A DNA stretch of 64,000 nucleotides from a virus (IMGVR_UViG_3300042905_002309:169278-233277); one strand, 5' to 3'. Shown: positions 24,177 to 48,865, counted from the stretch's first letter. Translations and numbers: made by a program. The notes: generated by a model from the sequence alone, not told the origin.

Positions 24177-25310
24177 ATGAGTGAGAGAAAATTAGCAAGT
24201 ATTCAGAAAATTATTGATGTTAAAGCCATTGACGGTGCTGATAAAATCGAACTAGCCTTTGTCAAGGGTTGGCAAGTTGTTGTGGCTAAGAAGGATGGAT
24301 TCAAGATTGGTGATTTAGTCGTCTATATCGAAATTGATTCACTAGTACCTGATCGTCCTGAATTTGAATTCCTTCGTGAGCGTAAGTTCCGTGTAAGAAC
24401 TATCAAGCTTCGTAAACAGCTTTCACAAGGTCTTATCGTTCCTATTGATACTATTTCTAATTTACGTCATGCTCTAATTTCATTAAAGACTATTGAAGAG
24501 GGTGATGATGTTACAGCACTTATGGGTATCACTAAGTATGATCCACAGGCACAGGAAGAGAAAGCTCTTAGCGTCCCTAAACACCAGAACAAGGTGCTTA
24601 GATACCTTATGAACTTCAAAGCCTTTAGAACGGTTTACTTAAAATTAAATCAAAAGGAGAACGGTTGGCCTGTCGGTGTTGTCTCTAAGACTGATGAAGA
24701 GAATATCCAGAATATGTACAATGTCATTTCTGAGAACTTTGAGAAGAGTTTTTATGTGACTGAGAAGTTAGAGGGACAGAGTGCGACATTCTATACCACG
24801 TTTGAGAAACATTGGGGTTTCAATCGTAAGGTGTTTGGTGTATGCTCTCGTAATATCAAACTTGAGAAACCTGACAACTCTAAGTACTGGCAGACCGCAA
24901 AGCGATATGATCTTGAGAAGGTTTTAAAGTCTTACAAGTGCCGTGTTGCTATTCAGGGTGAGCAAGTAGGTGAGGGTATTCAGGGTAATATCTATAAACT
25001 TACTGGTGTTGATCTATTTGTATTCAACGTGTATATGGATGGTAAACGTTTAGGTGTAGATGAATTGAAGGCATTTTGTGATAAGCATGGTTTAACGACT
25101 GTGCCTGTACTTGATGCAAACTTCGTTCCTTCTAAAGAAATAGTTTGCAATACCAAGGATGTTATTGTACATTACTTACTTGGATACAGTAATGGGACAT
25201 CTGTGTTATACAAGACTATGCGTGAGGGTGTTGTTTTACGATTAAATGAGAATCCTAGCGTATCAGTCAAGGCACGTAGTCCTGATTACTTAATTAAACA
25301 TGAGGAATAA
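24177..25310 (+). CDS. RNA ligase, DraRnl/Rnl5-like (N-terminal OB-like domain plus nucleotidyltransferase)
   Basis: N-terminus KLASIQKIIDVKAIDGADKIELAFVKGWQVVVAKKDGFKIGDLVVYIEIDS is typical of DRB0094-type ligases. Motif I candidate is EKLEG. Confidence 0.65.
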   Translation: MSERKLASIQKIIDVKAIDGADKIELAFVKGWQVVVAKKDGFKIGDLVVYIEIDSLVPDRPEFEFLRERKFRVRTIKLRKQLSQGLIVPIDTISNLRHALISLKTIEEGDDVTALMGITKYDPQAQEEKALSVPKHQNKVLRYLMNFKAFRTVYLKLNQKENGWPVGVVSKTDEENIQNMYNVISENFEKSFYVTEKLEGQSATFYTTFEKHWGFNRKVFGVCSRNIKLEKPDNSKYWQTAKRYDLEKVLKSYKCRVAIQGEQVGEGIQGNIYKLTGVDLFVFNVYMDGKRLGVDELKAFCDKHGLTTVPVLDANFVPSKEIVCNTKDVIVHYLLGYSNGTSVLYKTMREGVVLRLNENPSVSVKARSPDYLIKHEE

Positions 25311-25313
25311 ATT

Positions 25314-25466
25314 ATGAACAAATCAATGACAATAGCATCTTATGTGATTTTTTACCTAGCATTCGGTTTAATAGGATTCGGAACTAGTGGAGATGATGGA
25401 TCAAAATTCCGAGATATCGCAATCTTTTTAATGGGATGGGCTATCTTTATCAGACAAGGGGAATAA
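25314..25466 (+). CDS. small membrane protein (50 aa)
   Basis: SD GAGGA upstream. Two hydrophobic segments. Confidence 0.4.
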   Translation: MNKSMTIASYVIFYLAFGLIGFGTSGDDGSKFRDIAIFLMGWAIFIRQGE

Positions 25467-25561
25467 TATGAAACATACAGCAATAATCTTAATACTATTA
25501 ATTATCTTTGTAATGTTGTTCACTTCTGGTTGTGGATTCATAGTTCTATTTGGTATTTAAT

Positions 25562-25834
25562 ATGATAACTGCATACGGTGAAGATATCGCCTTTGCTATG
25601 TGCGGTGGGTGTCCTGTGCCGAAAGTGGCAAGGGATGCCTTCTGTCATATGTATAAAGGTAATGATGCTATGGAATATGGTAATCTATGTTTATTGCGTG
25701 AGATTGAACGTAGACAAAACGGTATATTAAACTTGTCACCATTCCAACCATGTGATAGTGAAGAAGCTAAAGCATCTTTGGAACGTCGAAGAGAACGTAT
25801 TATAGGTAAAGAATGGCAGGAATATTATGGTTAA
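25562..25834 (+). CDS. hypothetical protein
   Basis: ATG 25562. Confidence 0.5.
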   Translation: MITAYGEDIAFAMCGGCPVPKVARDAFCHMYKGNDAMEYGNLCLLREIERRQNGILNLSPFQPCDSEEAKASLERRRERIIGKEWQEYYG

Positions 25835-26357
25835 AATAAAATATGTTGAGGGTGATCTTACTGATCCTATTTCACTTGTTAGTGATAATGGAATATTAGT
25901 TAGTACGCTTATTATGCATATAGTGAACGATCAAGGTATGATGGGTTCTGGCGTTGCTAGAGCTTTGTATGAAAAATGGCCTAAAGTTCGTAGTGAATAC
26001 ATTCGATGGTTTAATGAACCGAATACTTTTGATGTTGATACAGCTTTCCGACTAGGTAAGACACAATTTGTGACTGTATCCCCACCATCACTATATGATA
26101 TCGTGGTAGCTAATATGGTAGGTCAACACATGGTTGGTGCTGATGAACATGGTAATCCACCTATCCGCTATGATGCCTTGGATAGTTGTTTAACGCATGT
26201 TAAGAATTATGCAGAAAGATTTGAATTTTCTGTACATATGCCTTATAAAATGGGTGCAGATCGTGCCAGAGGTGATTGGAACAAAATTGTACAGATGGTT
26301 GAAGATATCCTTTGCAAAAATGATATCGCTGTGGTAGTCTATAAGTTGAAAGGTTAA
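25827..26357 (+). CDS. macro-domain protein (ADP-ribose / Appr-1''-p processing family)
   Basis: YVEGDLT...IMHIVNDQGMMGSGVARAL...MPYKMGADRARGDW pattern. Confidence 0.6.
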   Translation: MVKIKYVEGDLTDPISLVSDNGILVSTLIMHIVNDQGMMGSGVARALYEKWPKVRSEYIRWFNEPNTFDVDTAFRLGKTQFVTVSPPSLYDIVVANMVGQHMVGADEHGNPPIRYDALDSCLTHVKNYAERFEFSVHMPYKMGADRARGDWNKIVQMVEDILCKNDIAVVVYKLKG

Positions 26358-26358
26358 T

Positions 26359-26526
26359 ATGAAAATAAAAACGTTATGGATTATCAAAGAGAAGGAATCT
26401 GGTGAACATAGATGGTATACGTTCACAAGACAACAAGCCAGAGATACTATTAAGGATTATAGATACTGGAATGGATTTAGTGCTAAACAATTAGTCGTTA
26501 AGCAAGGAAGGGTATTTGAAGTATGA
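26359..26526 (+). CDS. hypothetical 55-aa protein
   Basis: Start is 1 nt after the upstream stop. ATGA overlap downstream. Confidence 0.45.
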   Translation: MKIKTLWIIKEKESGEHRWYTFTRQQARDTIKDYRYWNGFSAKQLVVKQGRVFEV

Positions 26527-26924
26527 ATATTGAAAATGCAGAAAAACGTAAGCAAGGTCGCCCAAAAGATAATACATTTCCTACATTTGTTACATGTCGT
26601 GTGACAGGGAAACAAAGTAAAATTAATGTAACACTTTTGCGTAGACAACTCCAAAAGAACGGTAAAACTATTGAAGAGTATTTGTCAAATTATGTGAGCC
26701 GAGAGGGTAAACACATTGAGGAAGATGCCTCAGATACTACACAAGTACTTCCCCCGATCAATCCAGACCTTGGTAAGGCTATTGAAGTAGAGGAACGAGT
26801 ATACGATGAAGATACGTTAGAAAAACGTAAAGTCATTATCAAAGATTTGTGGAATAAAATTGCACAACAGCCTCCTGAATATTATCAGGAACAATTTAAG
26901 ATTATAGGTTATCGTGGAAAATAA
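26523..26924 (+). CDS. hypothetical protein with an N-terminal GRP (AT-hook-like) motif
   Basis: 133-aa ORF. Confidence 0.55.
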   Translation: MNIENAEKRKQGRPKDNTFPTFVTCRVTGKQSKINVTLLRRQLQKNGKTIEEYLSNYVSREGKHIEEDASDTTQVLPPINPDLGKAIEVEERVYDEDTLEKRKVIIKDLWNKIAQQPPEYYQEQFKIIGYRGK

Positions 26925-27099
26925 AGTAAGAACCGAACTATTATTACAAACTGCTAACATTAGAACGTTATGCAATGAAGTGTTGGATGATTATAACGAC
27001 AAGAAATTAACACTTGTCGAAATGGATGCCCGTATGGTAGTGTTAAGTAAGAAATTAACCGAGTTGTCAGAAAGACTTGAAAATGAAAAATTCGGATAA
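26914..27099 (+). CDS. hypothetical protein (GTG start)
   Basis: 61-aa ORF with a weak SD. Confidence 0.4.
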   Translation: MENKVRTELLLQTANIRTLCNEVLDDYNDKKLTLVEMDARMVVLSKKLTELSERLENEKFG

Positions 27100-27163
27100 A
27101 GCTATTATTATCATTGTAATCCTTTTACTATTTGGTGTAAAATGTTGCTAATGTGCGTGTTAT

Positions 27164-27436
27164 ATGAAACTATTACAAAGTGTCCTACTATCGATTGTGT
27201 TACTTTATTCTGGTGGGTGTGCGGGATATCCATTTGATAACGCTGACCATGAAGCATTGATTTTAATGTATAGTAGGCAACATGCCATTGAAGAACAAGT
27301 GAGACATCAGGCAGAGATTAGTGAAGCGGTAAAAAACTTTCAAATTCAAGCAATTAAAGGTGGCTTTGCTTATTGGGATGTGGTAGACTATTCAGGACGA
27401 GTGGAATTTAAATGGGTTGGACAGAAAAGGAAATAA
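27164..27436 (+). CDS. putative lipoprotein/secreted protein
   Basis: Signal-like N-terminus ending LLYSGGC. Confidence 0.5.
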   Translation: MKLLQSVLLSIVLLYSGGCAGYPFDNADHEALILMYSRQHAIEEQVRHQAEISEAVKNFQIQAIKGGFAYWDVVDYSGRVEFKWVGQKRK

Positions 27437-27437
27437 T

Positions 27438-27902
27438 ATGATTAATTTACAATTAGATATACCTGCATTGGAACGATTGATTGGCGATGATAAAGAATTC
27501 GAATTGAAGTTGAAGGATGGAGTCATTGCGAATTTCGTTGACAAACATCTTAGAGTTCTTTTGAAGGATGAACTTATCAAGGCTAAGATTGAGGAAATCA
27601 CCAAGAAGATTAATGGTGAGGCTGATAAGATCGTTGCCAAGGAATTTGGTAACATGTCTAGTACTGGTTATGGCTATGCAATCAAATTGAATACGGAGTT
27701 TGAGAAGCATCTTAAAAGTCTTATTCGTTCACATGTTGATACTATGGTTTACACTATTATTGATGATAAGGTGAAAGAGTCTATTGCTAGTATTGATATT
27801 GGTGCGTATGCAGACCGTATTATGACGCTTCGTATGAACGAATTGTGTAAAGATGCTATCAACACTAAGGCTAAAGCGTTGATTGCCAATGCTTTGAAGT
27901 GA
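27438..27902 (+). CDS. hypothetical protein
   Basis: ATG follows AAGGAAA. Confidence 0.6.
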   Translation: MINLQLDIPALERLIGDDKEFELKLKDGVIANFVDKHLRVLLKDELIKAKIEEITKKINGEADKIVAKEFGNMSSTGYGYAIKLNTEFEKHLKSLIRSHVDTMVYTIIDDKVKESIASIDIGAYADRIMTLRMNELCKDAINTKAKALIANALK

Positions 27903-27911
27903 GGTATATAT

Positions 27912-28055
27912 ATGGACGGTTCAGCATTCAGCGGTATGGGTGAAGTTATTGCAACGATGATGATAGCGTGTGTAATATTTGTCCCATTAGGTATATGGAA
28001 ATGTGTTGACATTATCATCTGGTTATGGCATCATTTTCACATAGTAATTACTTGA
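27912..28055 (+). CDS. small membrane protein (47 aa)
   Basis: SD GAGGT upstream. Hydrophobic core. Confidence 0.4.
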   Translation: MDGSAFSGMGEVIATMMIACVIFVPLGIWKCVDIIIWLWHHFHIVIT

Positions 28056-28062
28056 GGTAAAT

Positions 28063-28362
28063 ATGAAAACTAAAATAACTAAAATTAGTGCTGTTGATAA
28101 TCCGCTTGTACCTACTGCAAGTGTTGAACAGTATGAGTGTGGACATCTTAATGACTTGTCACCGTTTGATGGGTATTGGGTTACAGGGAAATTGGTTAAA
28201 CCAATTGTCGTAGGCGAATCTATCCTATTGGAGCGTGATTGTCGAAATGGTGTTAAAGTTGATGGAATGTTTGTTTCTTCAACGGTTAAAAAAACTGGTA
28301 AAAATTATGGTAAGTTGTTTGTATTTACAGATAATTCTATCTATAGAGTTGAGGAAGTATGA
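28063..28362 (+). CDS. hypothetical protein
   Basis: SD GAGGT upstream. Confidence 0.6.
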   Translation: MKTKITKISAVDNPLVPTASVEQYECGHLNDLSPFDGYWVTGKLVKPIVVGESILLERDCRNGVKVDGMFVSSTVKKTGKNYGKLFVFTDNSIYRVEEV

Positions 28363-28871
28363 AAATTGTACGTGACTTTCTAAGAGAGGTTTCGCTTGAA
28401 GAGTTCTGTGATGAAAATGATATTGAAATTATCATCCATGAACGTCCTAATGGTAGAGCGACAGGAAACGGCAACTTGACTCGCTATTATGGTGGATTAC
28501 AGAATAATATTAGTACACTCTGTGAAATTATTCGTCCTTCTATATTGAGTGGTGTTGTGGCTAATGGTAATACTGAGGAAGACGTTTTGAATCAAATAGT
28601 AGAAACTATTAGTGAAGAATCTATAACATTTGAAGCGATGAAAAAAGATCGTAGGATTTATAAGGTTCCTCGCTTAATTTCAGTGTGGACAGTTGATAAG
28701 AAATCAATTGCACCACCTGAAGAAAAAACTCATTATAAACCTTCAATTAGTAAAGAAAAATTTGAGAGAAGTTGTAAAAAGTGTGGATATCTAACTAAGA
28801 ATGTTAGTCACGGATATTATAAATGTCATTGCGGTGAATGTCCCGCTATAACTAAAAAGATACCAAAATGA
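28359..28871 (+). CDS. hypothetical protein with a C-terminal zinc ribbon
   Basis: CKKCG...CHCGEC motifs. Confidence 0.6.
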   Translation: MKIVRDFLREVSLEEFCDENDIEIIIHERPNGRATGNGNLTRYYGGLQNNISTLCEIIRPSILSGVVANGNTEEDVLNQIVETISEESITFEAMKKDRRIYKVPRLISVWTVDKKSIAPPEEKTHYKPSISKEKFERSCKKCGYLTKNVSHGYYKCHCGECPAITKKIPK

Positions 28872-29329
28872 AAAAGAAGCCTGAAATGATTATAATGATG
28901 GGCTTACCCGCTTGTGGTAAGAACACTTGGATTAAAAATAACAAGAAGTCTCACGTTGTAGTTGAACTTGATTGGATTCGTAGACATATCTTTGGACATC
29001 AGTATCATAAAGAAGCTGAACCATTTATCATCGGTATGGCGAAAAGTATTACCAGAATGCTTTTATCACAAGGCAAAGATGTGATTATAAATTCAACTGG
29101 TTTGGTGGCACAAATTCGTAATGAGTGGGTGAATATGGCTGATGAATACGAATATACTACCAAAATTGTTTTTATTGACATACCCATTATGAAGTGCTAT
29201 TCTCGTAATAGTAAGCGAGTAGAAGATAAGGTTCCAGAAGAAGTGATTGAACGAATGGGTAACATCTTACAACGACCTAATATCTCTTGTATCGATAAAG
29301 CCGATAAAATTTTGATTGCGGAAGATTAA
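28868..29329 (+). CDS. polynucleotide 5'-kinase-like P-loop protein (Pnk kinase domain only)
   Basis: Walker A GLPACGKNTW. YSRNSKR...VPEEVIERM resembles the remembered T4 Pnkp kinase domain ([20 protein letters not shown]). Confidence 0.6.
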   Translation: MKKKPEMIIMMGLPACGKNTWIKNNKKSHVVVELDWIRRHIFGHQYHKEAEPFIIGMAKSITRMLLSQGKDVIINSTGLVAQIRNEWVNMADEYEYTTKIVFIDIPIMKCYSRNSKRVEDKVPEEVIERMGNILQRPNISCIDKADKILIAED

Positions 29330-29331
29330 TT

Positions 29332-30450
29332 ATGAAGAAAATGACTGTTGAAGATTTGCGAAAGACAGGATACATCATCTTTGAATGTATCAGTGGTTCA
29401 CATGCTTATGGAACCAATATTGAAACCTCTGATACCGATATCAGGGGTATCTATATTTTTCCTGAAAGTGAAAAGACTTTATTTGACGATCACCAATTGG
29501 AAGTCGCTGATGATAAACAGGATATCAAGTTTTTTGAACTACAGAAGTTCATGCAACTTTGCGCTGAAAATAATCCCAATGTGTTAGAGCTATTGTTTAC
29601 TCCCGCTGAGTGCATCATTTATAAGGATGCCCGAATGGATGTATTACTTACCAATAATGAATTGTTTGTAAGTCAGAAGTCTTACCATAGTTTTAATGGA
29701 TACGCTTATGCACAGATTCAAAAGGCAAAGGGTAAGAATAAGAAGGTGAATAATCCGAAGCCTGTAGAGCGTCCTGTCAAGGAAGATTACTGCTTTGTAA
29801 TTCCAGAGGGAAGGATATACAATCTTCCACCTGCTAGACCTATTAAACTTACTGAAATTACTAGTACTTATGGTGGCAGTACCGAAGTAGTTCCTTTTGA
29901 TTTGAGTAAATTTAATTGTGCTAGACTTGAACAAACTGCACATATCTATAGACTTTATTACTACGGTGATGAAGCTAAAGGTGTGTTTCGTGGTGATGAA
30001 AATCTTGTGCCAGAGTCTATCCCATTGGAAGACGAAGTTACTAAGTTTTATGGCTTACTCATTTGGAATGAAGATGCCTATAAGCGTGATGTAGCTGAAT
30101 GGAAGTCTTATTGGGAGTGGAAGAATAATCGTAATGATGCACGTTGGGTGGATCAGGAAAAGGGATTGCTTGACTACGATCAAAAGAATATGATGCATTG
30201 CATGAGACTAATGTTAAGTGGAAAGAACATCTTGACAAATGGTGTGCCACTTGTTCGATTTGATGGTGAACAGTTGCAGTATCTACGTGACATTCGTGCA
30301 GGTAAGTTTGAATATAATTTTATTATGAACGCTGTTGAAGAAAAGATGAAGGAATTGGAAGTATTAAAGGATACTACTAAGCTTCGATATGCTGTTGATA
30401 ATTACGCAATTAGCGAGATTTACAAAAAGTTGATTTATTACACACTTTAA
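29332..30450 (+). CDS. RlaP-type nucleotidyltransferase (RNA-repair-associated Pol-beta superfamily)
   Basis: GSHAYGTNIETSDTDIRGIY matches the GSxxYG...SDxDxxG signature remembered for PF10127-like proteins. Confidence 0.6.
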   Translation: MKKMTVEDLRKTGYIIFECISGSHAYGTNIETSDTDIRGIYIFPESEKTLFDDHQLEVADDKQDIKFFELQKFMQLCAENNPNVLELLFTPAECIIYKDARMDVLLTNNELFVSQKSYHSFNGYAYAQIQKAKGKNKKVNNPKPVERPVKEDYCFVIPEGRIYNLPPARPIKLTEITSTYGGSTEVVPFDLSKFNCARLEQTAHIYRLYYYGDEAKGVFRGDENLVPESIPLEDEVTKFYGLLIWNEDAYKRDVAEWKSYWEWKNNRNDARWVDQEKGLLDYDQKNMMHCMRLMLSGKNILTNGVPLVRFDGEQLQYLRDIRAGKFEYNFIMNAVEEKMKELEVLKDTTKLRYAVDNYAISEIYKKLIYYTL

Positions 30451-30452
30451 TG

Positions 30453-30481
30453 TTGACTATGCTATCTTTGTTTGGTATCGT
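30453..30481 (+). promoter_or_regulatory. promoter (TTGACT 30453-30458, N17, TG-extended TATCGT 30476-30481)
   Basis: Read directly from sequence. The track TTG start at 30472 lies inside it. Confidence 0.55.
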
Positions 30482-30525
30482 ATTTAGCAGTGGTGGAAAT
30501 AATAACAAACAAAAGGGATAAAAGA

Positions 30526-31281
30526 ATGAAGAAAATTATTGTAATGGTGTTGGCAGTGTTGATGTGTGTCTCGTATGCTGATGCTAGAGGTTCAAGTTCT
30601 AGTTCACGTTCATCTGGATCACGCTCTTATAGTAGTAAGAGTTCTACCTCTAGTAAATCATATAACTCTTCTAGTAGGTCTGCAACACCTAGTAAGTCTG
30701 TCAGAACCCCTAGCATTACTCCAAGGTCTACACCCGCACCATTGACGATGCCAAAATATAACTCATCTTCAAGTAAAATTACTCCTAAATATACTCCTGC
30801 ACCTATTAAAACCTCTTCCCGTAGTTGGTTTAATAAGTCTACTCCAAGTCACTCAACAAGTCGAATGGTTCCTAATTATCATCGATCATATTCCTATGAC
30901 CGTCCTTCCTATACCACACATCATTCATCAGGGTTTGGAATGACTGATTATTTGATGTTGTATATGATTTTTGGCAATCATAATAACAACTCTACAAAAA
31001 GTTATGTAAATAACGCATATCCAGTTGCACCTACACTTGTAACAACTCGTTCAAATGTGGTAACGACCGTTCCTGCATATCTATGTAATACACAGTATCT
31101 TGGAACAGTTGAAGCCGATGAAAGAGTCAATGGAACTTATACCGTGTCTGATGAGACAGCAAGAAAAGTTGAACAAAGTAAAAATAGTGTTATGCTTTTC
31201 AACGTGGGTATGCTAGTATTGATCGTGTTGGCAGTATTTGGAGTGATTGGTTGGATTGTTTATATTAAAACGAAAGGATAA
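30526..31281 (+). CDS. Ser/Thr/Pro-rich secreted protein with signal peptide and C-terminal TM anchor
   Basis: MKKIIVMVLAVLMCVSYADA signal, low-complexity SSSSSRSSGSRSYSSKSS..., C-terminal LFNVGMLVLIVLAVFGVIGWIVYI. Confidence 0.65.
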   Translation: MKKIIVMVLAVLMCVSYADARGSSSSSRSSGSRSYSSKSSTSSKSYNSSSRSATPSKSVRTPSITPRSTPAPLTMPKYNSSSSKITPKYTPAPIKTSSRSWFNKSTPSHSTSRMVPNYHRSYSYDRPSYTTHHSSGFGMTDYLMLYMIFGNHNNNSTKSYVNNAYPVAPTLVTTRSNVVTTVPAYLCNTQYLGTVEADERVNGTYTVSDETARKVEQSKNSVMLFNVGMLVLIVLAVFGVIGWIVYIKTKG

Positions 31282-31378
31282 ACATGCGCTAGATAATAAA
31301 GATAAAGTGTGTGAATATGTTGGATAAAGTGTTGATAGTAAATGTATTAAATAAATGTTAGTAAAAGAAAGAATAAAA

Positions 31379-32650
31379 ATGAAAACAAAGTTGATTGTGT
31401 TGGGATTGTTGACGTTGGTGGTAGTGTGTATTTGTGCGTTGTGGGGTCAGGCTGTTGAACCTGTCATTTCTACGAAGTTGGCTCTTGCCAATGTGAATGG
31501 AACTGATGGCGATTGGCAGACCTTGAACGTGTTTACAGCTAATAAGTTCTTGATTAAGACTGTATTAGTGGCTTTGCTTGGCATCGTGGCAATGTTTATG
31601 TTCCTTCCTAAGAATACTGGTAAGAACGTGAGTATTGTTATTGGTATGCTTATCATTGGTTTGAATACTACTGGTTGTATGCGACCTTACGATATTCCTG
31701 AATACAGGGATGTTAAGCCTAATGAGACAGCTTTCGTCATTCCTTTGGATATTGACGGAAACGGTCAAGTGAAGTTCAACTCTGCATCATTCTTGGAAAC
31801 GAAAAAGGTTGCATCTAAGCGTATTCAGGTTATGCATCGTTGGGTACAGGAAGGTCGCTTGATCGCTGATGGTAAGTATATTCCGACTTCTGTATTGATT
31901 ATCGTTGATCGTCAACCTGTTACAGAGGAATGGGTTGCAAAAGAAGGTCAGGTAAAGGGTAAAGATAATGCTATCTGGACTGAAAGTATGGATTCAGTTG
32001 GATTCAGCATGGGTTGGACTTGTACCGCTTATATCAAGGAAGAGGATGCTTCTAATTTCTTGTACTTCTACCCTAGTTCTGGTTTGAAAGCTGTTATGAA
32101 TAGTGAAATTCGTGGAAGGGTTCAAATGACTTCTGCTAACTTCTCTGCTCAGTATAAGCTTGACGATTTGCGTAATAAGAAGAATGAAATGGCAAAGAAG
32201 GTTCAGGAAGATGTTATTGAGTTCTTCAAGACTCGTGGTATCACTATTACAATGGTTGGTATGTTCGGTGGTATGACCTATGAAAATCCTAAGATTCAGG
32301 ATGCTATCGATCAGACCTTTGTAAGTCAGCAGGAAAAGGTTAATGCGTCAGCTTTCTTGGATGCACAGAAGGATAAGAATGCTCGTATTAATAGCGAGGC
32401 TACGGCACTTGCAGAAGCGTCACGTTCAAAAGCCAAGGGTGAAGCTGATGGTATTGAGTTTATCAATGTCGCACTTGCCAAGGCTAATAACAACCCTCAG
32501 TTGATTGAGTTGCGTCAAATTGAGGTTGAGAAGGCACGTATCGACAAGTGGAATGGCACGTATCCTAGCACCGTTGCAGGAGCAGGGGCGCAGACATGGG
32601 TAGGATTGTCCCAAAAGGATGAAGTAGCACCTGTAATGCCTAAGAAATAA
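31379..32650 (+). CDS. membrane protein, SPFH/band-7-like
   Basis: Two or three N-terminal TM segments. Ala/Lys/Glu-rich C-terminal helix (ALAEASRSKAKGEADG...) as in HflK/prohibitin-type proteins. Assignment is by eye only. Confidence 0.5.
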   Translation: MKTKLIVLGLLTLVVVCICALWGQAVEPVISTKLALANVNGTDGDWQTLNVFTANKFLIKTVLVALLGIVAMFMFLPKNTGKNVSIVIGMLIIGLNTTGCMRPYDIPEYRDVKPNETAFVIPLDIDGNGQVKFNSASFLETKKVASKRIQVMHRWVQEGRLIADGKYIPTSVLIIVDRQPVTEEWVAKEGQVKGKDNAIWTESMDSVGFSMGWTCTAYIKEEDASNFLYFYPSSGLKAVMNSEIRGRVQMTSANFSAQYKLDDLRNKKNEMAKKVQEDVIEFFKTRGITITMVGMFGGMTYENPKIQDAIDQTFVSQQEKVNASAFLDAQKDKNARINSEATALAEASRSKAKGEADGIEFINVALAKANNNPQLIELRQIEVEKARIDKWNGTYPSTVAGAGAQTWVGLSQKDEVAPVMPKK

Positions 32651-32671
32651 CTTTAACCAGAAGTTAGAAGT

Positions 32672-32702
32672 CCCCTGCCCGAAAGGGTGGTGGATTTTTT
32701 GT
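32672..32702 (+). terminator. rho-independent terminator
   Basis: CCCCTGCCC-GAAA-GGGTGGTGG hairpin followed by ATTTTTTG. Confidence 0.65.
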
Positions 32703-32730
32703 TGACAGTATCACGTTTTTATGAGAGACT
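32702..32730 (+). promoter_or_regulatory. promoter, leaderless type (TTGACA 32702-32707, N17, GAGACT 32725-32730; ATG at 32737)
   Basis: Read directly from sequence. Six nt lie between the -10 box and the ATG, with no SD. Confidence 0.6.
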
Positions 32731-32736
32731 ATAAAC

Positions 32737-33072
32737 ATGAAGAAGCAGTATAAGAAATCTTGTAAAGAAGTATTGATTAAATATACTGAACAGGGTTCAG
32801 ATGCAATTAAACAGGTGATAGTTCACCACACTAGTAAGAGTAAGGCTATATTGGCATGGAAGAAAAGTAATCCCAATGCTCGATTAGTACCTATGCCATC
32901 AAGTGGTGAATATTCTGTAGAGGCTTATACTATAGTAAAATGTTGTAGAACGTGTAAACATTTTCAAGAATATTGCAATCTATATCCAGACTATCCTTCA
33001 AGAGGACAATGTTTAAAAACCACCAACATGATGTTATGGTTTAACGAATGTAAGGATTTTGAGGCTAAATGA
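32737..33072 (+). CDS. hypothetical Cys-containing protein
   Basis: 111-aa ORF starting at the predicted transcript 5' end. Confidence 0.6.
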   Translation: MKKQYKKSCKEVLIKYTEQGSDAIKQVIVHHTSKSKAILAWKKSNPNARLVPMPSSGEYSVEAYTIVKCCRTCKHFQEYCNLYPDYPSRGQCLKTTNMMLWFNECKDFEAK

Positions 33073-33206
33073 AACCATATAGTGATAAAATTAATCCTAA
33101 AGGTATGTCAGGTCGTAGGAAGTCAAAGAATACTGCACATCGTAGACGATCATTAAGAGTTGATAAGAAGTCAGCAAGACAGGCAGGAAAGAAAAATGAA
33201 TATTAA
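33069..33206 (+). CDS. small highly basic protein (45 aa)
   Basis: ATGA overlap with the upstream gene. R/K-rich. Confidence 0.35.
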   Translation: MKPYSDKINPKGMSGRRKSKNTAHRRRSLRVDKKSARQAGKKNEY

Positions 33207-33663
33207 TCTAAAATATCTAAGATACATTTTAATACATAAGTACTACGTTTTTAAAGCCTGTCTAAAATATGGATTGGTTTGGCGAGGGCTTGTACACGAT
33301 TTATCAAAATTGCGTCCATCAGAGTTTATACCTTATCGTGAATACTTTTATGGAGATTTAAGCAATACTGATGAATGTGCAACAAACTTTGATTATGCTT
33401 GGAAGTCTCACCAGAAATGTAATAAACATCATCCCCAATATTGGCTATTGAAGAATGATGATGGTAAGCTACGCCCCTTAGAAATGCCATTGGTATACCG
33501 TCAGGAGATGGTAGCAGATTGGAGAGGTGCAGGGATGGCTATCAATAGTAAGGATGAGGTTCTAGCGTGGTATACTAAAAATAGGTTGAAAATGATTATT
33601 GCGCCTGTTACCAGAGCATGGGTTGAAAATGAAATTGGATATAAAGAAGGAAAGGTAATATGA
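33196..33663 (+). CDS. hypothetical protein (HDLSK motif)
   Basis: ATG 33196 follows GGAAAG. Confidence 0.55.
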   Translation: MNINLKYLRYILIHKYYVFKACLKYGLVWRGLVHDLSKLRPSEFIPYREYFYGDLSNTDECATNFDYAWKSHQKCNKHHPQYWLLKNDDGKLRPLEMPLVYRQEMVADWRGAGMAINSKDEVLAWYTKNRLKMIIAPVTRAWVENEIGYKEGKVI

Positions 33664-34046
33664 AAACTATAAAGGGTTGGAAAGTAATTAGAGTAAAAGA
33701 TAGAAGGTCGGCAGTTACGACAATGGGTTGCACAGAGCAAGGAAAGTATATTTTACATTACCCTGTAGGTGTTACAGTTAAACCTAAAGTAGCGGGTACT
33801 AAGATATTATTTTTCAAAAAATTAGTACACGCCGAAATCTTTCGAGATATAAATAGTAAAGATTATAACGAACTTTTTATTGTTCCTTGTATTGCACAAG
33901 GGGCTTCAAAAATTAAAATAGTTTCTAATTTAATGCAAATTGATGATTTTTGGAAGCTTAAAAAATCCAAAAAAGGTGTTGGTTGCTTTAGTTGGATGGC
34001 TCCAAGTGGAACATATGGCGCAGATTCAATTAAATGTTTGAAATAA
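33660..34046 (+). CDS. hypothetical protein
   Basis: ATGA overlap with the upstream gene. Confidence 0.55.
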   Translation: MKTIKGWKVIRVKDRRSAVTTMGCTEQGKYILHYPVGVTVKPKVAGTKILFFKKLVHAEIFRDINSKDYNELFIVPCIAQGASKIKIVSNLMQIDDFWKLKKSKKGVGCFSWMAPSGTYGADSIKCLK

Positions 34047-34057
34047 ATTTGTTTAGG

Positions 34058-34087
34058 TTGTGGTATTGTTTTATCAGCTTGTAGACT
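34058..34087 (+). promoter_or_regulatory. weak promoter candidate (TTGTGG, N18, TAGACT)
   Basis: Read directly from sequence. Lies upstream of the GIY-YIG gene. Confidence 0.3.
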
Positions 34088-34112
34088 AAATAATTGTAGG
34101 AGTAATACAATT

Positions 34113-34808
34113 ATGTACATTTACAAGACAACTAACAAATTAAATGGTAAAATTTATATCGGACTTTCAAAGTTTGCGCCACAAGAAAATCCAGAGTATT
34201 TAGGTTCTGGTTATATCTTAAAGAAAGCTATTGAATGTTATGGTGCAGAGAATTTTGTAAAAGTTATTTTAGAAGAATGTTCTACACAGGAACAGCTATT
34301 AGAACGAGAAAGATACTGGATAGCCACATTAAAAGCTAATGACCGCAATGTGGGTTATAATATTTGTGAGGGTGGAACATGGGGTGACAATTGGACTAAT
34401 CATCCTAATAAAGAAGAATGGCGCAAAAAACTTAGTGAATCTAATCGTGGCAAGAAGAATGGTAATTATGGTAATCGATGGACTGATGAACAGAAAAGAA
34501 AAGCATCAGAAAGAGTAAAATTAAATCCTATAGGAATTGATCCTAAAACTGGTGAACACTATACAAAGAATCCTGAAACTAGAAAAAAATTATCAGATAC
34601 GAAATTAGGTTTAAATAATCCACACTCAAATTTATGGAAATTAGTATCGCCCATAGGTGAAATTTTTATAATAGAAGGTGGAATCAAAAAGAAAATTAAA
34701 GAATGTGGTTCAGACTATCAACAATTTAAACACGCTTTAATATTACCTGACGGTGGACGAAGAAATCTTAAAGGTTGGACACTATATAAATTAGAAAAAC
34801 CAATATAA
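34113..34808 (+). CDS. GIY-YIG homing endonuclease
   Basis: IYKTTNKLNGKIYIGLS...YLGSG...RERYWI plus NUMOD-like repeats (SESNRGKKNGNYG). Confidence 0.85.
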   Translation: MYIYKTTNKLNGKIYIGLSKFAPQENPEYLGSGYILKKAIECYGAENFVKVILEECSTQEQLLERERYWIATLKANDRNVGYNICEGGTWGDNWTNHPNKEEWRKKLSESNRGKKNGNYGNRWTDEQKRKASERVKLNPIGIDPKTGEHYTKNPETRKKLSDTKLGLNNPHSNLWKLVSPIGEIFIIEGGIKKKIKECGSDYQQFKHALILPDGGRRNLKGWTLYKLEKPI

Positions 34809-34811
34809 TTG

Positions 34812-34840
34812 TTGACAATAGCTACGAAATAATGTAGATT
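34812..34840 (+). promoter_or_regulatory. leaderless-type promoter (TTGACA 34812-34817, N17, TAGATT 34835-34840, ATTACAC, ATG 34848)
   Basis: Read directly from sequence. Same -10-to-ATG architecture as the promoters at 48830 and 37797. Confidence 0.65.
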
Positions 34841-34847
34841 ATTACAC

Positions 34848-36038
34848 ATGAAAGAGATTAAAGGACAATTTAATACTGCGAAGGTGTTTGCATCAACAGT
34901 CGAACCTTCTTGTGAAGCACAAATTTTAGAGTTATGTAATGAAGAATGGGTATATAACTCTAAAATACGCATTATGGCAGACTGTCATTCTGGTAAGGGA
35001 TGTGTTATTGGTACTACTATGACAATTATTGATAAAATTGTTCCTAATTTAACCGGGGTTGATATCGGATGTGGGGTTCTTGTGACTAAATTTGATACGC
35101 TTTCTTTAACCTTGGAACAGGTTGACTCAATTGTTAAGCGTAACATCCCTATGGGTATGAATTCTCGTCAGTCTATGGTGGTTGACTTTACTCCTGAATT
35201 GGATAAGGCTATCTGTAAGGAAGCTTTTGATCCTCGTCAGGTTTGTAAGTCCATTGGTTCGTTGGGTGGTGGAAACCACTTTATCGAAATTGATAAGGAC
35301 GATGAGGGTAATTTTTATTTAGTCGTACATACGGGTTCTCGTAACTTTGGTAAGCGTGTTGCTGAACATTACCAGAACAAGGCTGTTGATTATCATTCCA
35401 AGAAGGGTTTGAAGTCTACTCAAGAAATCATTAACGAGTTGAAAGCCAAGGGGTTACAACACATGATTCCTGCTGAATTGAAGAAACGTAATGCCGTGGC
35501 TAACGAAGCTTTGACCTATTTGGAAGGTGACTTGTTTGATTGTTACTTAAACGATATGCATATTGCTCAGAAGATGGCAAGTGAGAACCGTAAGGCTATT
35601 GCAGATATCTTGTGCCGTACAATGCATATTAAGCCTACTGAACAATTTGAAACGATTCATAACTACATTGATGTTCATGCTATGATTTTGCGTAAAGGTG
35701 CTATCTCTGCGAAAGCGGGTGAAGTGTGCTTAATTCCTATCAATATGCGTGATGGTTCGTTAATCTGTGTTGGTAAGGGTAACGAAGATTATAACTATTC
35801 TGCGCCTCATGGTGCAGGTCGTTTAATGTCTCGTAAACAGGCGAAGCGTGAATTGTCTTTGGAAGGGTTCAAGGATACGATGAAGGATATTTATTCATCT
35901 ACGGTGGGTGCGTCTACGTTGGACGAAGCACCTGATGCTTACAAGCCTATTGCTGAAATCTTGGAGAACATTCAGGATACGGTTACGGTGTTGAAGCAGA
36001 TCAAGCCTATTTACAATGTGAAAGCGGAAGAGGAATAA
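34848..36038 (+). CDS. rtcB: RtcB RNA 3'-phosphate/2',3'-cyclic-phosphate ligase
   Basis: GVDIGCG, GGGNHFIE, HTGSRNFG and SAPHGAGR motifs. Confidence 0.92.
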   Translation: MKEIKGQFNTAKVFASTVEPSCEAQILELCNEEWVYNSKIRIMADCHSGKGCVIGTTMTIIDKIVPNLTGVDIGCGVLVTKFDTLSLTLEQVDSIVKRNIPMGMNSRQSMVVDFTPELDKAICKEAFDPRQVCKSIGSLGGGNHFIEIDKDDEGNFYLVVHTGSRNFGKRVAEHYQNKAVDYHSKKGLKSTQEIINELKAKGLQHMIPAELKKRNAVANEALTYLEGDLFDCYLNDMHIAQKMASENRKAIADILCRTMHIKPTEQFETIHNYIDVHAMILRKGAISAKAGEVCLIPINMRDGSLICVGKGNEDYNYSAPHGAGRLMSRKQAKRELSLEGFKDTMKDIYSSTVGASTLDEAPDAYKPIAEILENIQDTVTVLKQIKPIYNVKAEEE

Positions 36039-36041
36039 ATA

Positions 36042-36164
36042 ATGAAGGTACTACTATGTCTAGTTTGTATTACATTTATTACTGGATGTTCGACATACAA
36101 TAATAGAAAATACATACCAGAAGCGGGTAGTACCGAATTATTTCCAACCCATAGGATAAATTAA
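36042..36164 (+). CDS. small lipoprotein (40 aa)
   Basis: Signal peptide plus lipobox ITGC. Confidence 0.45.
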   Translation: MKVLLCLVCITFITGCSTYNNRKYIPEAGSTELFPTHRIN

Positions 36165-36165
36165 A

Positions 36166-36393
36166 ATGAACGAAGATATTAAACCATTACCATGTCCCTT
36201 TTGTGGCGAGATTCTTACATTTCAAATTGATGAAATGGGTGGGGTGTGGTACGAACATAGTGATCGCAATCCTTATACTGTCTTTACATATAAGACAAAC
36301 TATAATGAAGCAAAGCGTTGTGTGTTGTCACATTTTACCTTAGATGGTGATCCAAAAGCTATTAAACAATGGAATGATCGAATAAAGGATTAA
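36166..36393 (+). CDS. Lar-family-like zinc-ribbon protein
   Basis: PCPFCGE ... AIKQWNDR pattern. Confidence 0.45.
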   Translation: MNEDIKPLPCPFCGEILTFQIDEMGGVWYEHSDRNPYTVFTYKTNYNEAKRCVLSHFTLDGDPKAIKQWNDRIKD

Positions 36394-36394
36394 T

Positions 36395-36973
36395 ATGGAC
36401 ATTCGCAAAGTTAGTAAAATATTGTGTTTAAGTTTACGACATAAACCAGAACTTTTGAAATTGAATATGGATTCCGAAGGTTGGGTTGATGTCAATGAAT
36501 TAATCCGCAGATACAATAATTACTATAAGCCTGACACTTACCTTAATAGGAATTTTCTTGATAAGGTGGTTGAAGAGAACAATAAGAAGCGTTTCGCCTA
36601 TAGTGATGATGGTACAAAGATTCGTGCCTCTCAGGGACATTCGATTAATATTAATTTGAATCTTCCTGAGAGTGTTCCAGAAGATATTTTATATCATGGA
36701 ACAGCTAAACGTTTTCTTAATGGTATCATGAAAGAAGGTTTGAAGAAAATGGAGCGTCAACACGTTCATTTATCTGACAATCTTAAAACAGCTTATTCAG
36801 TAGGTTCACGACATGGAGAACCTATTATTCTTATGGTACATGCGGGTGTAATGCATAAGAATGGGTTTAAGTTTTACAAATCCGAGAATGGGGTATGGTT
36901 GACTGATAATGTTCCGAAACAATATCTTGACTTTGCACCAATAATTGCGTATACTACTGGCTACGGTAAATAA
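36395..36973 (+). CDS. kptA: RNA 2'-phosphotransferase Tpt1/KptA
   Basis: LSLRHKPE...GWV...SQGHS...LYHGT...HVHLS motifs. Confidence 0.88.
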   Translation: MDIRKVSKILCLSLRHKPELLKLNMDSEGWVDVNELIRRYNNYYKPDTYLNRNFLDKVVEENNKKRFAYSDDGTKIRASQGHSININLNLPESVPEDILYHGTAKRFLNGIMKEGLKKMERQHVHLSDNLKTAYSVGSRHGEPIILMVHAGVMHKNGFKFYKSENGVWLTDNVPKQYLDFAPIIAYTTGYGK

Positions 36974-37796: not shown

Positions 37797-37825
37797 TTGA
37801 CTAATACAATTAAACAATGTAGTCT
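37797..37825 (+). promoter_or_regulatory. leaderless-type promoter (TTGACT 37797-37802, N17, TAGTCT 37820-37825, ATTAAAC, ATG 37833)
   Basis: Read directly from sequence. The track TTG start codon is actually the -35 box. Confidence 0.6.
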
Positions 37826-37832
37826 ATTAAAC

Positions 37833-38960
37833 ATGAATAAAACATATCCAATTATTTACAAAAGAACTAAAACGTCAGCAATTCAGACATGGCAGATCAT
37901 AGTCGAGGGTAACACTTATTATACCGTAGATGGTCAAATAGACGGTGTTAAGAGCAAATCTGCGCCTACTGTGTGTAAGGGTAAGAACATTGGCAAGGCT
38001 AATGAGACTTCCGATGAACAACAGGCTATTGCAGAGGCAGAAGCTAAAATTGAAAAGAAGCTTAAAACAGGCTATAGTGAAGATATTGCAAATATCGATA
38101 CCTGTCTAAAGTATTTTGAGCCACAACTTGCTGAAAAGTATATTGAATTTAAGGATAGTGTTGTATTCCCCATCTTGGCAAGTCGTAAGATCGATGGTGC
38201 AAGAATGGTGAATACAGCTACAGCTATTACCACTCGTAAGGGTGAAGATTATCTAAGCTGTCCACATATTCAGAAGGCACTTAAACCCTTCTTTGCCAAG
38301 CATCCTAAAGGTGTGGTTGATGGTGAAATTTATTCACACGGTCAATTCTTTGAGAAGATCATGAGTCTTGTGCGTAAGAAGAAACCAACACAAGCTGAAA
38401 TTGATGAAAGTGAGAAGCTTTGTAAATTGTGGATTTTCGATGGTATTGTAGACGATTCAAAGGAAGGTTTTGCAAAGCGTTTTTCAGACCTTAAACGAGA
38501 ATTGAAGGCTACTATTGATTCTAAAACACTTGAAAAGTATTTTGTGTTTGTAGAGAATGTAGTAATCAACAGTCATGAAGCGTTTGAAGCTGAACATGAT
38601 AAGTATGCGGGTGAAGGATTTGAAGGTGCAATTCTTCGTTATGCCAATGCTCCGTATTACAATAAGCGTAGTAAGTATCTTTTGAAGTATAAGCATTTCA
38701 TTGATGAAGAGTTTGTGATTGTTGATTTTCTTGAAGGTACTGGTTCTGATGCAGGGTTGGCTAGTAAGATCGTAGTCCGTTTGAAAGATGGTTCAACGTC
38801 AGAAGCGGGTATCCGTGGTGATACTGCATACGTCACTCAGTTGTTGAAGGATCGTAAGCATTACATTGGCAAAAAGGCAACAGTTCGTTATCAGAATTTC
38901 ACCAAGTATGGTAAGTTACATTTTGGTGTAGCGGTTAATATTGATCGATTTGATATATGA
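37833..38960 (+). CDS. ATP-dependent DNA ligase
   Basis: Motif I KIDGARM, motif IV EGAILR, motif V LLKYK. Confidence 0.85.
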   Translation: MNKTYPIIYKRTKTSAIQTWQIIVEGNTYYTVDGQIDGVKSKSAPTVCKGKNIGKANETSDEQQAIAEAEAKIEKKLKTGYSEDIANIDTCLKYFEPQLAEKYIEFKDSVVFPILASRKIDGARMVNTATAITTRKGEDYLSCPHIQKALKPFFAKHPKGVVDGEIYSHGQFFEKIMSLVRKKKPTQAEIDESEKLCKLWIFDGIVDDSKEGFAKRFSDLKRELKATIDSKTLEKYFVFVENVVINSHEAFEAEHDKYAGEGFEGAILRYANAPYYNKRSKYLLKYKHFIDEEFVIVDFLEGTGSDAGLASKIVVRLKDGSTSEAGIRGDTAYVTQLLKDRKHYIGKKATVRYQNFTKYGKLHFGVAVNIDRFDI

Positions 38961-40300: not shown

Positions 40301-41041
40301 ATGAAAGAAGTAAAAATAGTAGCAACTAGCGATATACATGGGGAACTTGAATTCAAGATTCCTTCTGGTGATATTTTGACTATTAGTGGTGATATCTGTC
40401 CTGTTAATGGCTCACATAATCCGACTAATCAGATGTATTGGCTTAAAAACCATTTCCTACCTTGGACTGACCAGTTAATTAAGAATAAAGTGGTTAAGCA
40501 TGTTGTCTTTATTGCGGGGAACCATGATTTCGTCTTTAAAAAGGTTACTACTAATACTACAGGTGATTTCTATATGTCGTTACCTGATAATGTACATTTT
40601 CTAAACGATTCTGGCGTTGAACTTGAAGGTGTTAAAATCTATGGTACACCGTGGACACCGACCTTTGGTAATTGGGCGTTTATGACTTGTGAGGAAGCTT
40701 TGGATAATATTTATTCTAAGATTCCAGAAGGTTTGGATATACTTTTATCTCATGGCCCTGCTTATGGTTGGAATGATGTAATCTTAAAAGGCCCGTATAA
40801 AAGTTATTCCAGAGAAGATGAACATATCGGTTCAAAATCTTTGAGAAAACACATACTTAGAGCTAAACCTAAACATTTTTGTTATGGTCACATACATGAG
40901 TGTTCACATACTCCGTTAATTATTCCACATATTAACGAAAATATTGAACGGGTATCAGAAACTACTAGTAATTGTGTTTCTTTGCTTAATGATGATTATG
41001 AGATTGAATATCCAACATATCAATTTAATCTTGTAAAATAG
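40301..41041 (+). CDS. calcineurin-like metallophosphoesterase
   Basis: SDIHG, GDI, GNHD, HGP and GHIH motifs. Confidence 0.75.
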   Translation: MKEVKIVATSDIHGELEFKIPSGDILTISGDICPVNGSHNPTNQMYWLKNHFLPWTDQLIKNKVVKHVVFIAGNHDFVFKKVTTNTTGDFYMSLPDNVHFLNDSGVELEGVKIYGTPWTPTFGNWAFMTCEEALDNIYSKIPEGLDILLSHGPAYGWNDVILKGPYKSYSREDEHIGSKSLRKHILRAKPKHFCYGHIHECSHTPLIIPHINENIERVSETTSNCVSLLNDDYEIEYPTYQFNLVK

Positions 41042-48858: not shown

Positions 48859-48865
48859 ATTACAC

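Follow-up and report, generated by a model that had tools for sequence, protein, structure and literature searches.

RESULTS

A probable RNA repair island in a huge uncultivated phage

Positions 24,177 to 36,973 of a 64,000-nt stretch of viral DNA (IMGVR_UViG_3300042905_002309:169278-233277; the whole stretch is hereafter called the window) hold a real and unusually full copy of the kit for repair of RNA (tRNA) that earlier work has described in jumbo phages. With a probability of roughly 0.65, this region is the core of a counter-defense island of a huge uncultivated phage, which would keep the RNA of translation, chiefly tRNA, usable after host nucleases have cut it. The island is marked by six genes, all on the + strand and spanning 12.8 kb, for an RNA ligase (Rnl5), a macrodomain protein, a polynucleotide 5′-OH kinase (Pnk), the nucleotidyltransferase RlaP, the ligase RtcB, and the 2′-phosphotransferase Tpt1/KptA. 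The six calls had been made in an earlier sequence-only reading, which described the ligase as DraRnl-like and the kinase as Pnk-like. Profile and structure-database searches upheld all of them, and neither the ligase nor the kinase nor the nucleotidyltransferase was reassigned to another family. From the families, their intact motifs, gene coupling, and recurrent linkage, we infer likely substrates, an order of steps, and a defense context, as set out below.

The phage appears in many samples. Across public metagenome assemblies, 47 blocks encode an identical Tpt1 protein in identical synteny, and their contigs reach 0.2-1 Mb; the element is therefore a huge phage that is widespread and has not been cultivated. 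Megablast of the 12.8-kb region against 50,697 phage records gave no match; the best RlaP matches among phage records were in uncultured phages of 635 to 642 kb. The closest cellular Tpt1 genes (47 to 53% identity) were those of Saprospiraceae and other Bacteroidota, which are likely hosts judging from this relationship.

Two predicted sealing chemistries

The first gene was assigned to the Rnl5 type of RNA ligase because its product joins an N-terminal OB domain (PF21189, PHA02142; 1.5e-30, residues 6-90) to a nucleotidyltransferase domain (PF09414, RNA_ligase; 7e-22, residues 191-359), passes the NCBIfam equivalog TIGR02306 (RNA_lig_DRB0094, the Deinococcus DR_B0094 ligase; 153.4 bits compared to a cut-off of 151.15), and aligns over both domains with the Naegleria RNA ligase 5cot (6.7e-39). 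Motifs I, III, IV, and V are aligned (KLEGQS for motif I, then QGEQVGEGIQGN, EGVV, and KA.S), and no C-terminal domain follows. Ligases of the Rnl5 family carry out Mn-dependent sealing of 3′-OH/5′-P nicks in which the 3′-OH strand is RNA. In RtcB, the segments DIGCG (DxxC), GGGNHF, HTGSR, and PHGAGR align with Pyrococcus horikoshii RtcB, and both the metal-binding Asp, Cys, and His residues and the GMP-accepting His of HGAGR are present. The two predicted ligases would provide the parallel sealing chemistries that the sequence-only reading had proposed, Rnl5 for 3′-OH/5′-P ends and RtcB for 3′-P or 2′,3′-cyclic phosphate and 5′-OH ends.

A kinase coupled to RlaP and to a small dsRBD-like protein

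The kinase matches AAA_33 (3e-21, residues 7-136), and its best solved relatives are T4 polynucleotide kinase (1ly1, 4.6e-9) and, from Clostridium thermocellum, the Pnkp kinase domain. The segments GLPACGKNTW (P-loop Lys), ELDWIRR (Asp/Arg after strand 2), and RNSKR (RxxxR lid motif) are conserved relative to 1ly1, which places the protein in the kinase clade. Because it is only 153 aa long it lacks a phosphatase domain, as had been noted from the sequence, and thus differs from Pnkp and HD-Pnk enzymes with their fused HAD, metallophosphoesterase, or HD 3′-phosphatase; the open reading frame (ORF) coupled to it upstream is dsRBD-like. RlaP scored 82.6 bits against PF10127 (4.7e-23; cut-off, 23) and retains the core SGSHAYGT...SDTDIRG. 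Two Pseudomonas enzymes of this family add 1 to 2 NMP to damaged RNA 3′-OH ends and restore aminoacylation of the repaired tRNA (PMC12776372).

These genes are translationally coupled. ATGA overlaps join o28063, o28359, and Pnk, and RlaP starts 2 nt past the end of Pnk. Since o28359 is coupled to the kinase, it was the first place to look for a phosphoesterase. This role was ruled out: the relatives of o28359 are only phage proteins of ∼110 aa, no Pfam or PDB profile matched it, and its fold is predicted to resemble a double-stranded RNA-binding domain (dsRBD), with a predicted local distance difference test (pLDDT) score of >90 for the N-terminal domain. In a related phage that holds the kit in another order, a homologue with 35% identity follows RtcB after two small ORFs (187 and 99 aa), and the gene therefore appears to travel with the kit. 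The protein is probably an RNA-binding accessory and is a candidate partner of Pnk and RlaP.

Tpt1 and the macrodomain

The closest solved relative of the phage Tpt1 is the Runella slithyformis enzyme (7kw8, 5.8e-48). Its Arg-His-Arg-Arg tetrad, with residues as named in PMC6097658, is conserved relative to 7kw8 (RH, the Arg of IRA.QGHS, and the Arg of KKMxR). The macrodomain matched Bt_1257 (2afc/2fg1, 2e-25) and SCO6735 (5e3b, 2e-21) end to end, as well as phrog_335; faint matches to DarG were also seen. Its MVGQHM aligns with MIGQHG of Bt_1257, the GQH segment expected to hold the catalytic Gln (Gln85 of SCO6735). No Pfam family matched, PF01661 included, and the protein does not fall in the MacroD/Poa1 class, which acts on ADP-ribose 1′′-phosphate (Appr-1′′-p).

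SCO6735 and Bt_1257 are grouped in one subclass of the ALC1-like macrodomains. SCO6735 strips DNA of the ADP-ribose that DarT attaches to thymidine and shields cells from DarT (PMC9411070); 2′-OH ADP-ribosylated RNA is not a substrate of SCO6735 (PMC11833690). Because this subclass acts on DarT-modified DNA, the textbook Appr-1′′-p step belongs to another class of macrodomains. The sequence-only reading had seen here the clean-up enzymes of a eukaryote-like pathway. Tpt1 and a macrodomain are indeed present, but the macrodomain is probably of the SCO6735/Bt_1257 type rather than the Appr-1′′-p class, and there is no 2H cyclic phosphodiesterase. The same phage also carries a NADAR gene, and NADAR and the macrodomain could jointly reverse guanine- and thymine-linked DNA ADP-ribosylation by DarT1- and DarT2-type toxins.

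Recurrent linkage of the same families

The set recurs, at least in part, in other genomes. First, a related phage with an RtcB 65% identical and a metallophosphoesterase 56% identical to those of the window keeps the same kit in a different order: DNA ligase, Rnl5, GIY-YIG, RtcB, the dsRBD-like gene, metallophosphoesterase, and an AAA_33 kinase. Second, a relative phage (locus L012) has Pnk, RlaP, DUF5662, metallophosphoesterase, a SPASM protein, and the CCA-adding enzyme inside 16 kb. Third, 6 out of 10 loci with a viral Tpt1 gene had RlaP (4/10), RtcB (1/10), or an RNA ligase (1/10) within 10 kb. The annotation of two cultured phages, phiCD211 and Erwinia phage Y3, shows no repair gene around Tpt1. 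Taken singly, the families are common among phage records, with Tpt1 found in 98, RlaP in 351, an Rnl5-type ligase in 337, and RtcB in 692.

Finally, cellular genomes link these families in two ways. In a Dysgonamonadaceae metagenome-assembled genome (L129, 3333-12483), a co-directional run comprises a WYL-HTH regulator, RtcB, a PrfH-like RF-1 protein, a 138-aa ORF, an AAA/M41 protease-like protein, Tpt1, a 265-aa RNA-ligase-family protein, and HD-Pnk. To judge from its gene content, this run joins the RtcB-PrfH ribosome repair pair to a Runella-like Tpt1-ligase-HD-Pnk set, which Shuman's group has proposed to be a new repair pathway (PMC6097658). A different neighborhood was found in 7 of the 36 bacterial Tpt1 loci (L131, L117, L126, L130, L133, L136, and L137, from Flavobacteriia and Saprospirales), which look NrtR-regulated and combine NrtR with some of NAMPT, Prs, macrodomain genes, and a metallophosphoesterase. 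The full series is seen in Polaribacter (L131, 4903-11250), where NrtR, NAMPT, an unassigned 329-aa gene, and a Prs-like gene are followed by a Bt_1257-type macrodomain, a MacroD-type macrodomain, Tpt1, and a metallophosphoesterase. As NAMPT is rare in bacteria, its linkage to Tpt1 in Bacteroidota is not due to chance. These clusters appear to tie bacterial Tpt1 to nicotinamide adenine dinucleotide (NAD+) salvage and ADP-ribose processing, and L131 links the Bt_1257 subclass to Tpt1 despite the DNA-directed activity of that subclass. The window metallophosphoesterase was considered as the counterpart of the bacterial Tpt1-adjacent one and rejected, the two being of different subfamilies.

Layout of the island and neighboring genes

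All genes of the repair region (24-39 kb, G+C of ∼36%) are on the + strand and can be divided into modules (Table 1). Module 1 consists of Rnl5, two small ORFs, and the macrodomain gene, and module 2 of the tightly packed o28063, o28359, Pnk, and RlaP. In module 3, the DUF5662 gene overlaps a 128-aa ORF and is followed by a free-standing GIY-YIG/NUMOD3 homing endonuclease gene. The latter is a mobile element outside the pathway; a GIY-YIG gene also precedes RtcB in the related phage, and Rfam detected no group I intron around it. Module 4 contains RtcB, a small zinc-ribbon ORF, Tpt1, three small ORFs, and a DNA ligase that is probably replicative. Further downstream are genes for an ABC-ATPase/GNAT protein, the metallophosphoesterase, NMNAT-Nudix, NAMPT, PTH2, NADAR, and the CCA-adding enzyme.

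TABLE 1 Features of the repair island and associated genes in the window
Feature	Coordinates	Strand	Basis or remark
Rnl5 (DraRnl/NgrRnl-type) ATP-dependent RNA ligase, OB + nucleotidyltransferase domains	24177..25310	+	Pfam, TIGR02306, 5cot
Small ORF, 90-94 aa	25550..25834	+	Overlaps macrodomain gene start by 8 nt; no family match
Macrodomain protein, probable SCO6735/Bt_1257 subclass of ALC1-like	25827..26357	+	PDB profile matches
o28063, 99 aa, no family match	28063..28362	+	First of four-gene coupled set
o28359, dsRBD-like (HicB-like fold) domain + C-terminal Cys-rich zinc-ribbon-like tail	28359..28871	+	Predicted fold
Polynucleotide 5′-OH kinase (Pnk), kinase domain only	28868..29329	+	AAA_33, T4 Pnk
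RlaP nucleotidyltransferase	29332..30450	+	PF10127
Serine-rich membrane protein + 431-aa SPFH/Band 7 protein (N-terminal membrane segment)	30472-32650		Splits repair genes into halves
DUF5662 protein, HD-superfamily-like	33160..33663	+	Invariant residues, predicted fold
Free-standing GIY-YIG/NUMOD3 homing endonuclease	34113..34808	+	Just upstream of RtcB
RtcB, GTP-dependent 3′-phosphate/5′-OH RNA ligase, short bacterial type	34848..36038	+	PF01139, 7e-59
Small zinc-ribbon ORF (Lar-like, below cut-off)	36166..36393	+	Stops 1 nt before Tpt1 start codon
Tpt1/KptA, NAD+-dependent RNA 2′-phosphotransferase	36395..36973	+	Profile, 2.5e-48
ATP-dependent DNA ligase	37797..38960	+	Profile searches
MPPED2/class III-like metallophosphoesterase	40301..41041	+	3rl4, 9e-19
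NMN adenylyltransferase-Nudix fusion (NadM-like)	43881..44789	+	Profile searches
Nicotinamide phosphoribosyltransferase (NAMPT_N + NAPRTase)	45036..46415	+	Profile search
PTH2 peptidyl-tRNA hydrolase	46528..46950	+	31.2 bits; cut-off, 23
NADAR domain protein (ADP-ribose N-glycosidase family)	54169..54687	+	PADLOC PDC-M42C, 2e-29
CCA-adding enzyme with C-terminal HD domain	61980 (or 61995)..63455	+	Profile search

The ABC-ATPase/GNAT gene (39247-40281), between the DNA ligase and metallophosphoesterase genes, encodes a 344-aa protein whose N-terminal half is an ABC-type ATPase and whose C-terminal half is a GNAT acetyltransferase (phrog_11143, 9e-82). A SPASM-domain protein is encoded at 48830-49927 (phrog_7293, 1.6e-108), and L012 likewise has a SPASM protein in the vicinity of DUF5662 and the metallophosphoesterase. 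A terminator-like hairpin at 32675-32690 follows the serine-rich membrane/SPFH pair. A scan for promoters and terminators was uninformative because its counts were no better than those of shuffled sequence. At 14873-18186, a T4-type rIIB gene (PF26926) follows a 727-aa ORF, probably rIIA, and the repair island is therefore downstream of an rII-like locus.

Candidate enzymes for end healing

The sequence-only reading had recognized no cyclic phosphodiesterase or healing phosphatase, and this still holds: searches with Pfam, PHROGs, and precomputed Pfam annotation found neither a 2H/LigT cyclic phosphodiesterase nor another clear healing enzyme in any ORF of the window. Three candidates were nevertheless considered. 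The first, and the one that the earlier reading had also pointed to, is the metallophosphoesterase, which is kept in related phages at 46 to 56% identity and which, by family, is a candidate cyclic phosphodiesterase for RNA 2′,3′-cyclic phosphate or the 1′′,2′′-cyclic phosphate of ADP-ribose. Class III metallophosphoesterases such as Rv0805 hydrolyze 2′,3′-cyclic nucleotides. The second is the DUF5662 protein. Its H, HD, H, HH, and D positions are invariant, and its model is all-helical and confident (pLDDT of 95), from which it may be read as an HD-superfamily phosphohydrolase and, as a weak candidate, as a 2′,3′-phosphoesterase. It lies among Pnk, RlaP, metallophosphoesterase, and the CCA-adding enzyme in L012. 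As a repair-linked phosphoesterase it was demoted: although HD-like, it has repair genes nearby in only 7 of 80 viral loci, and its sequence is not similar to that of the HD domain in HD-Pnk. In another viral contig (L010, 4840-12201), DUF5662 overlaps the end of a gene for a 1061-aa DUF5661 protein, 2 kb from a Ro60/TROVE-vWA gene. The third candidate for healing 3′ ends is the HD domain of the CCA-adding enzyme; in the Escherichia coli enzyme, this domain hydrolyzes 2′,3′-cyclic nucleotides.

NAD+ salvage and translation genes

The window combines NAMPT with NMNAT in one phage genome, the hallmark of NARP2, a known anti-defense pathway that defeats NAD depletion (bioRxiv 10.1101/2024.02.11.579819). 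Pairs of the NARP2 type are reported in ∼1.1% of sequenced phages. PTH2 (46528) and the CCA-adding enzyme (61995), which the sequence-only reading had placed elsewhere in the window, were confirmed by profile search. ARAGORN and Rfam together give three or four tRNA genes. ARAGORN predicted tRNA-Tyr(GTA), tRNA-Lys(TTT), and tRNA-Leu(TAA), and the tRNA or tRNA-like sites are at 3120-3196, 8451-8511, 12549-12623, and 13172-13254; in Rfam, tRNA-Tyr fell below the gathering score, and a further partial tRNA-like match was found at 8451-8511 (39.4 bits). Anticodon nucleases are known to attack Lys(UUU) and Tyr tRNAs.

DISCUSSION

A proposed repair pathway

Broken RNA could be restored by two routes. 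In route A, RtcB would join 2′,3′-cyclic phosphate or 3′-P ends straight to 5′-OH ends. In route B, the standalone Pnk would phosphorylate the 5′-OH, a candidate phosphoesterase (the metallophosphoesterase, DUF5662, or the HD domain of the CCA-adding enzyme) would clear the 3′ end, RlaP would put back one or two lost 3′ nucleotides, and Rnl5 would seal the 3′-OH/5′-P nicks in folded RNA. The o28359 protein, with its dsRBD-like and zinc-ribbon parts, would probably help to hold structured RNA. In an adjoining NAD wing, Tpt1 would strip 2′-phosphates from RNA at the expense of NAD+, and the macrodomain, the Nudix domain, NAMPT, and NMNAT may return nicotinamide and ADP-ribose derivatives to NAD+; the salvage pair may also guard the NAD+ supply against NAD-depleting defenses. 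PTH2, the CCA-adding enzyme, and the phage tRNAs would complete the rescue of translation.

The earlier interpretation is thus supported, with caveats that concern the macrodomain and the source of a Tpt1 substrate. Several observations weigh against reading the region as the core of one counter-defense repair island. The six genes are not a single operon, since two membrane proteins, the homing endonuclease, and small ORFs without an assigned family lie between them. No other kit gene was seen within 10 kb of the viral genes most similar to RtcB (9 loci), Rnl5 (1 locus), and RlaP (1 locus). The activity demonstrated for the macrodomain subclass is de-ADP-ribosylation of DNA (PMC9411070). Tpt1 has no evident source of internal 2′-PO4, because neither a 2H cyclic phosphodiesterase nor a fungal-type, 2′-PO4-tolerant ligase that would generate it was found in the window, and Runella Tpt1 is inept at removing terminal 2′- or 3′-phosphates (PMC6573784). 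DUF5662 lacks a consistent repair linkage (RtcB, Rnl5, or CCA enzyme in the 7 loci mentioned above, RlaP or Pnk in 0/80). Lastly, the phage is uncultivated and known from sequence alone.

Alternative explanations

The macrodomain and the NAD+ genes raise the question of whether the island holds two separate kits, one for RNA repair (Pnk, RlaP, Rnl5, and RtcB) and one for NAD+/ADP-ribose counter-defense (macrodomain, NADAR, Tpt1, NMNAT-Nudix, and NAMPT). The second kit would rebuild NAD+ after TIR/SIR2 depletion and strip ADP-ribose from phage DNA or RNA hit by DarT-type and related toxins, and Tpt1 might act non-canonically, e.g., by ADP-ribosyl capping of 5′-phosphates. This would agree with the reversal of DarT thymidine ADP-ribosylation by SCO6735, the closest characterized relative of the macrodomain, with the membership of Bt_1257 in the same subclass (PMC9411070), and with the faint DarG matches. 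It would also agree with the presence of NADAR, with the demonstrated anti-defense role of NARP2, with the NrtR/NAD-salvage clusters around Tpt1 in Bacteroidota, and with the ability of Tpt1 enzymes to ADP-ribosylate 5′-phosphate ends (PMC6182162). However, Tpt1 begins only 357 nt downstream of RtcB, its tetrad for 2′-phosphate transfer is intact, in L129 it stands between RtcB-PrfH and RNA ligase-HD-Pnk, and RlaP, RtcB, or an RNA ligase is near it in most of the viral loci examined (6/10). Two kits, which we regard as rather unlikely, would moreover be compatible with an RNA repair island, the two explanations not being mutually exclusive.

A bolder version of the NAD wing, on present evidence a distinctly unlikely one, would be a self-contained, NAD-recycling removal of 2′-phosphates alongside Pnk, RlaP, and Rnl5, in which Tpt1 spends NAD+ and the metallophosphoesterase, macrodomain, Nudix domain, NAMPT, and NMNAT rebuild it from the by-products. 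If true, 2′-phosphorylated RNA would be inflicted by Bacteroidota hosts or made by the repair route, and it would be the natural substrate that has long been sought for bacterial and phage Tpt1, a question that Shuman's group has stated to be open (PMC6097658, PMC6573784). The Bacteroidota NrtR-NAMPT-Prs-Macro-Tpt1-metallophosphoesterase clusters would then be a cellular version of the cycle.

The proximity of the six genes might also have no functional meaning, the genes having been acquired separately, each working alone, and heaped in a hyperplastic region downstream of rIIA/rIIB. The whole window is a succession of small co-directional accessory genes, with homing endonucleases and many small uncharacterized ORFs, and both the unrelated genes interspersed in the island and the isolated RtcB, Rnl5, and RlaP homologues listed above would be expected from such heaping. 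The computed chance of finding the six genes inside 12.8 kb is at most ∼1.6e-3 (∼1.6e-3 on 64 kb, ∼6e-6 on 200 kb), although the true null is weaker than these odds because accessory genes of big phages cluster anyway. Against mere heaping, Pnk and RlaP are translationally coupled, the related phage keeps the set close in a different order (and L012 does so partly), and cellular genomes link the same families, all of which make it quite improbable. That the enzymes serve the phage's own RNA processing (maturation of tRNAs or transcripts, or resealing of breaks made by phage nucleases) rather than defense damage is highly improbable: the window does encode tRNAs and HNH, GIY-YIG, and endonuclease VII-like genes, but these endonucleases are DNA homing types, no intron-bearing tRNA or group I intron was found in the window, and no RNase or anticodon nuclease was recognized by PADLOC or PHROGs among ten large uncharacterized ORFs, which also gives no support to the earlier suggestion that the phage itself generates tRNA breaks. 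The HNH and endonuclease VII/HNH-like genes are at 2595-3098 and 61264-61896 (− strand).

Comparison with known systems

The island offers a defined gene set for reconstitution in vitro, with Tpt1 beside RtcB, near a kinase-only Pnk, RlaP, and Rnl5, and upstream of the genes for NAD+ salvage. The same families occur in Bacteroidota operons, and two unnamed proteins gain a testable role, DUF5662 as a candidate HD-type phosphoesterase and o28359 as a dsRBD-like partner. Otherwise, the island chiefly bears out the picture drawn for cultured jumbo phages, now in a huge phage that is abundant and uncultivated.

Parts of the island resemble four known systems. T4 Pnkp-Rnl1, which counters PrrC, shares the logic of a 5′-kinase and an ATP-dependent ligase, and the window kinase resembles T4 Pnk; however, it lacks the HAD 3′-phosphatase, the ligase is Rnl5, and RtcB, RlaP, and Tpt1 are extra. 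The Runella slithyformis Tpt1/MTase-HIT/ligase/HD-Pnk cluster (PMC6097658) contains the Tpt1 that is the closest solved relative of the phage enzyme. In that cluster, as in L129, Tpt1 is linked to an RNA-ligase-family gene and a Pnk kinase, plus RtcB in L129, and the DNA ligase gene placed after Tpt1 in the window echoes the arrangement. In contrast, the phage Pnk has no HD domain, the window has no MTase-HIT gene, and the phage ligase, with its N-terminal OB domain, is only distantly similar to the L129 ligase. Like the fungal and plant tRNA splicing machinery (Trl1, Tpt1, Cpd1, and Poa1), the window has a kinase, an ATP-dependent ligase, Tpt1, and a macrodomain, but it has no 2H cyclic phosphodiesterase and no ligase known to need or accept 2′-PO4, and its macrodomain is ALC1-like, not Poa1/MacroD-like. 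Like NARP2 of Vibrio phage KVP40, the window is predicted from its genes to pair NAMPT with an NMNAT-Nudix fusion, here 7 kb downstream of the NAD+-consuming Tpt1.

The closest parallel is the scheme for jumbo phages published by Aravind's group (Iyer, Anantharaman, Krishnan, Burroughs, and Aravind; Viruses 2021, PMC7824862; Viruses 2022, PMC9503650). It comprises two classes of ligase (RtcB and ATP-dependent RNA ligases in one genome), Pnk, phosphatases of the calcineurin-like or HD type, KptA together with Macro and 2H, RlaP, the CCA-adding enzyme, PTH2, tRNAs, and NAD+ salvage (NadV/NadM). The jumbo-phage RNA repair and NAD+/ADP-ribose systems thus have the same parts list as the window. 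The phrase "exceptionally complete" in the sequence-only reading is fair with respect to the concentration of genes, whereas the concept of the kit was already in these two papers. The jumbo-phage systems have Rnl1 or Rnl2, whereas the window ligase is of the Rnl5 type, with no 2H or recognizable cRec domain, and the uncultivated phage packs nearly all of the parts into ∼40 kb and six of them into 13 kb. What is particular to the window is the density of the set, Rnl5, a kinase-only Pnk, the absence of a 2H enzyme, the dsRBD-like partner, and the parallel with the Bacteroidota clusters.

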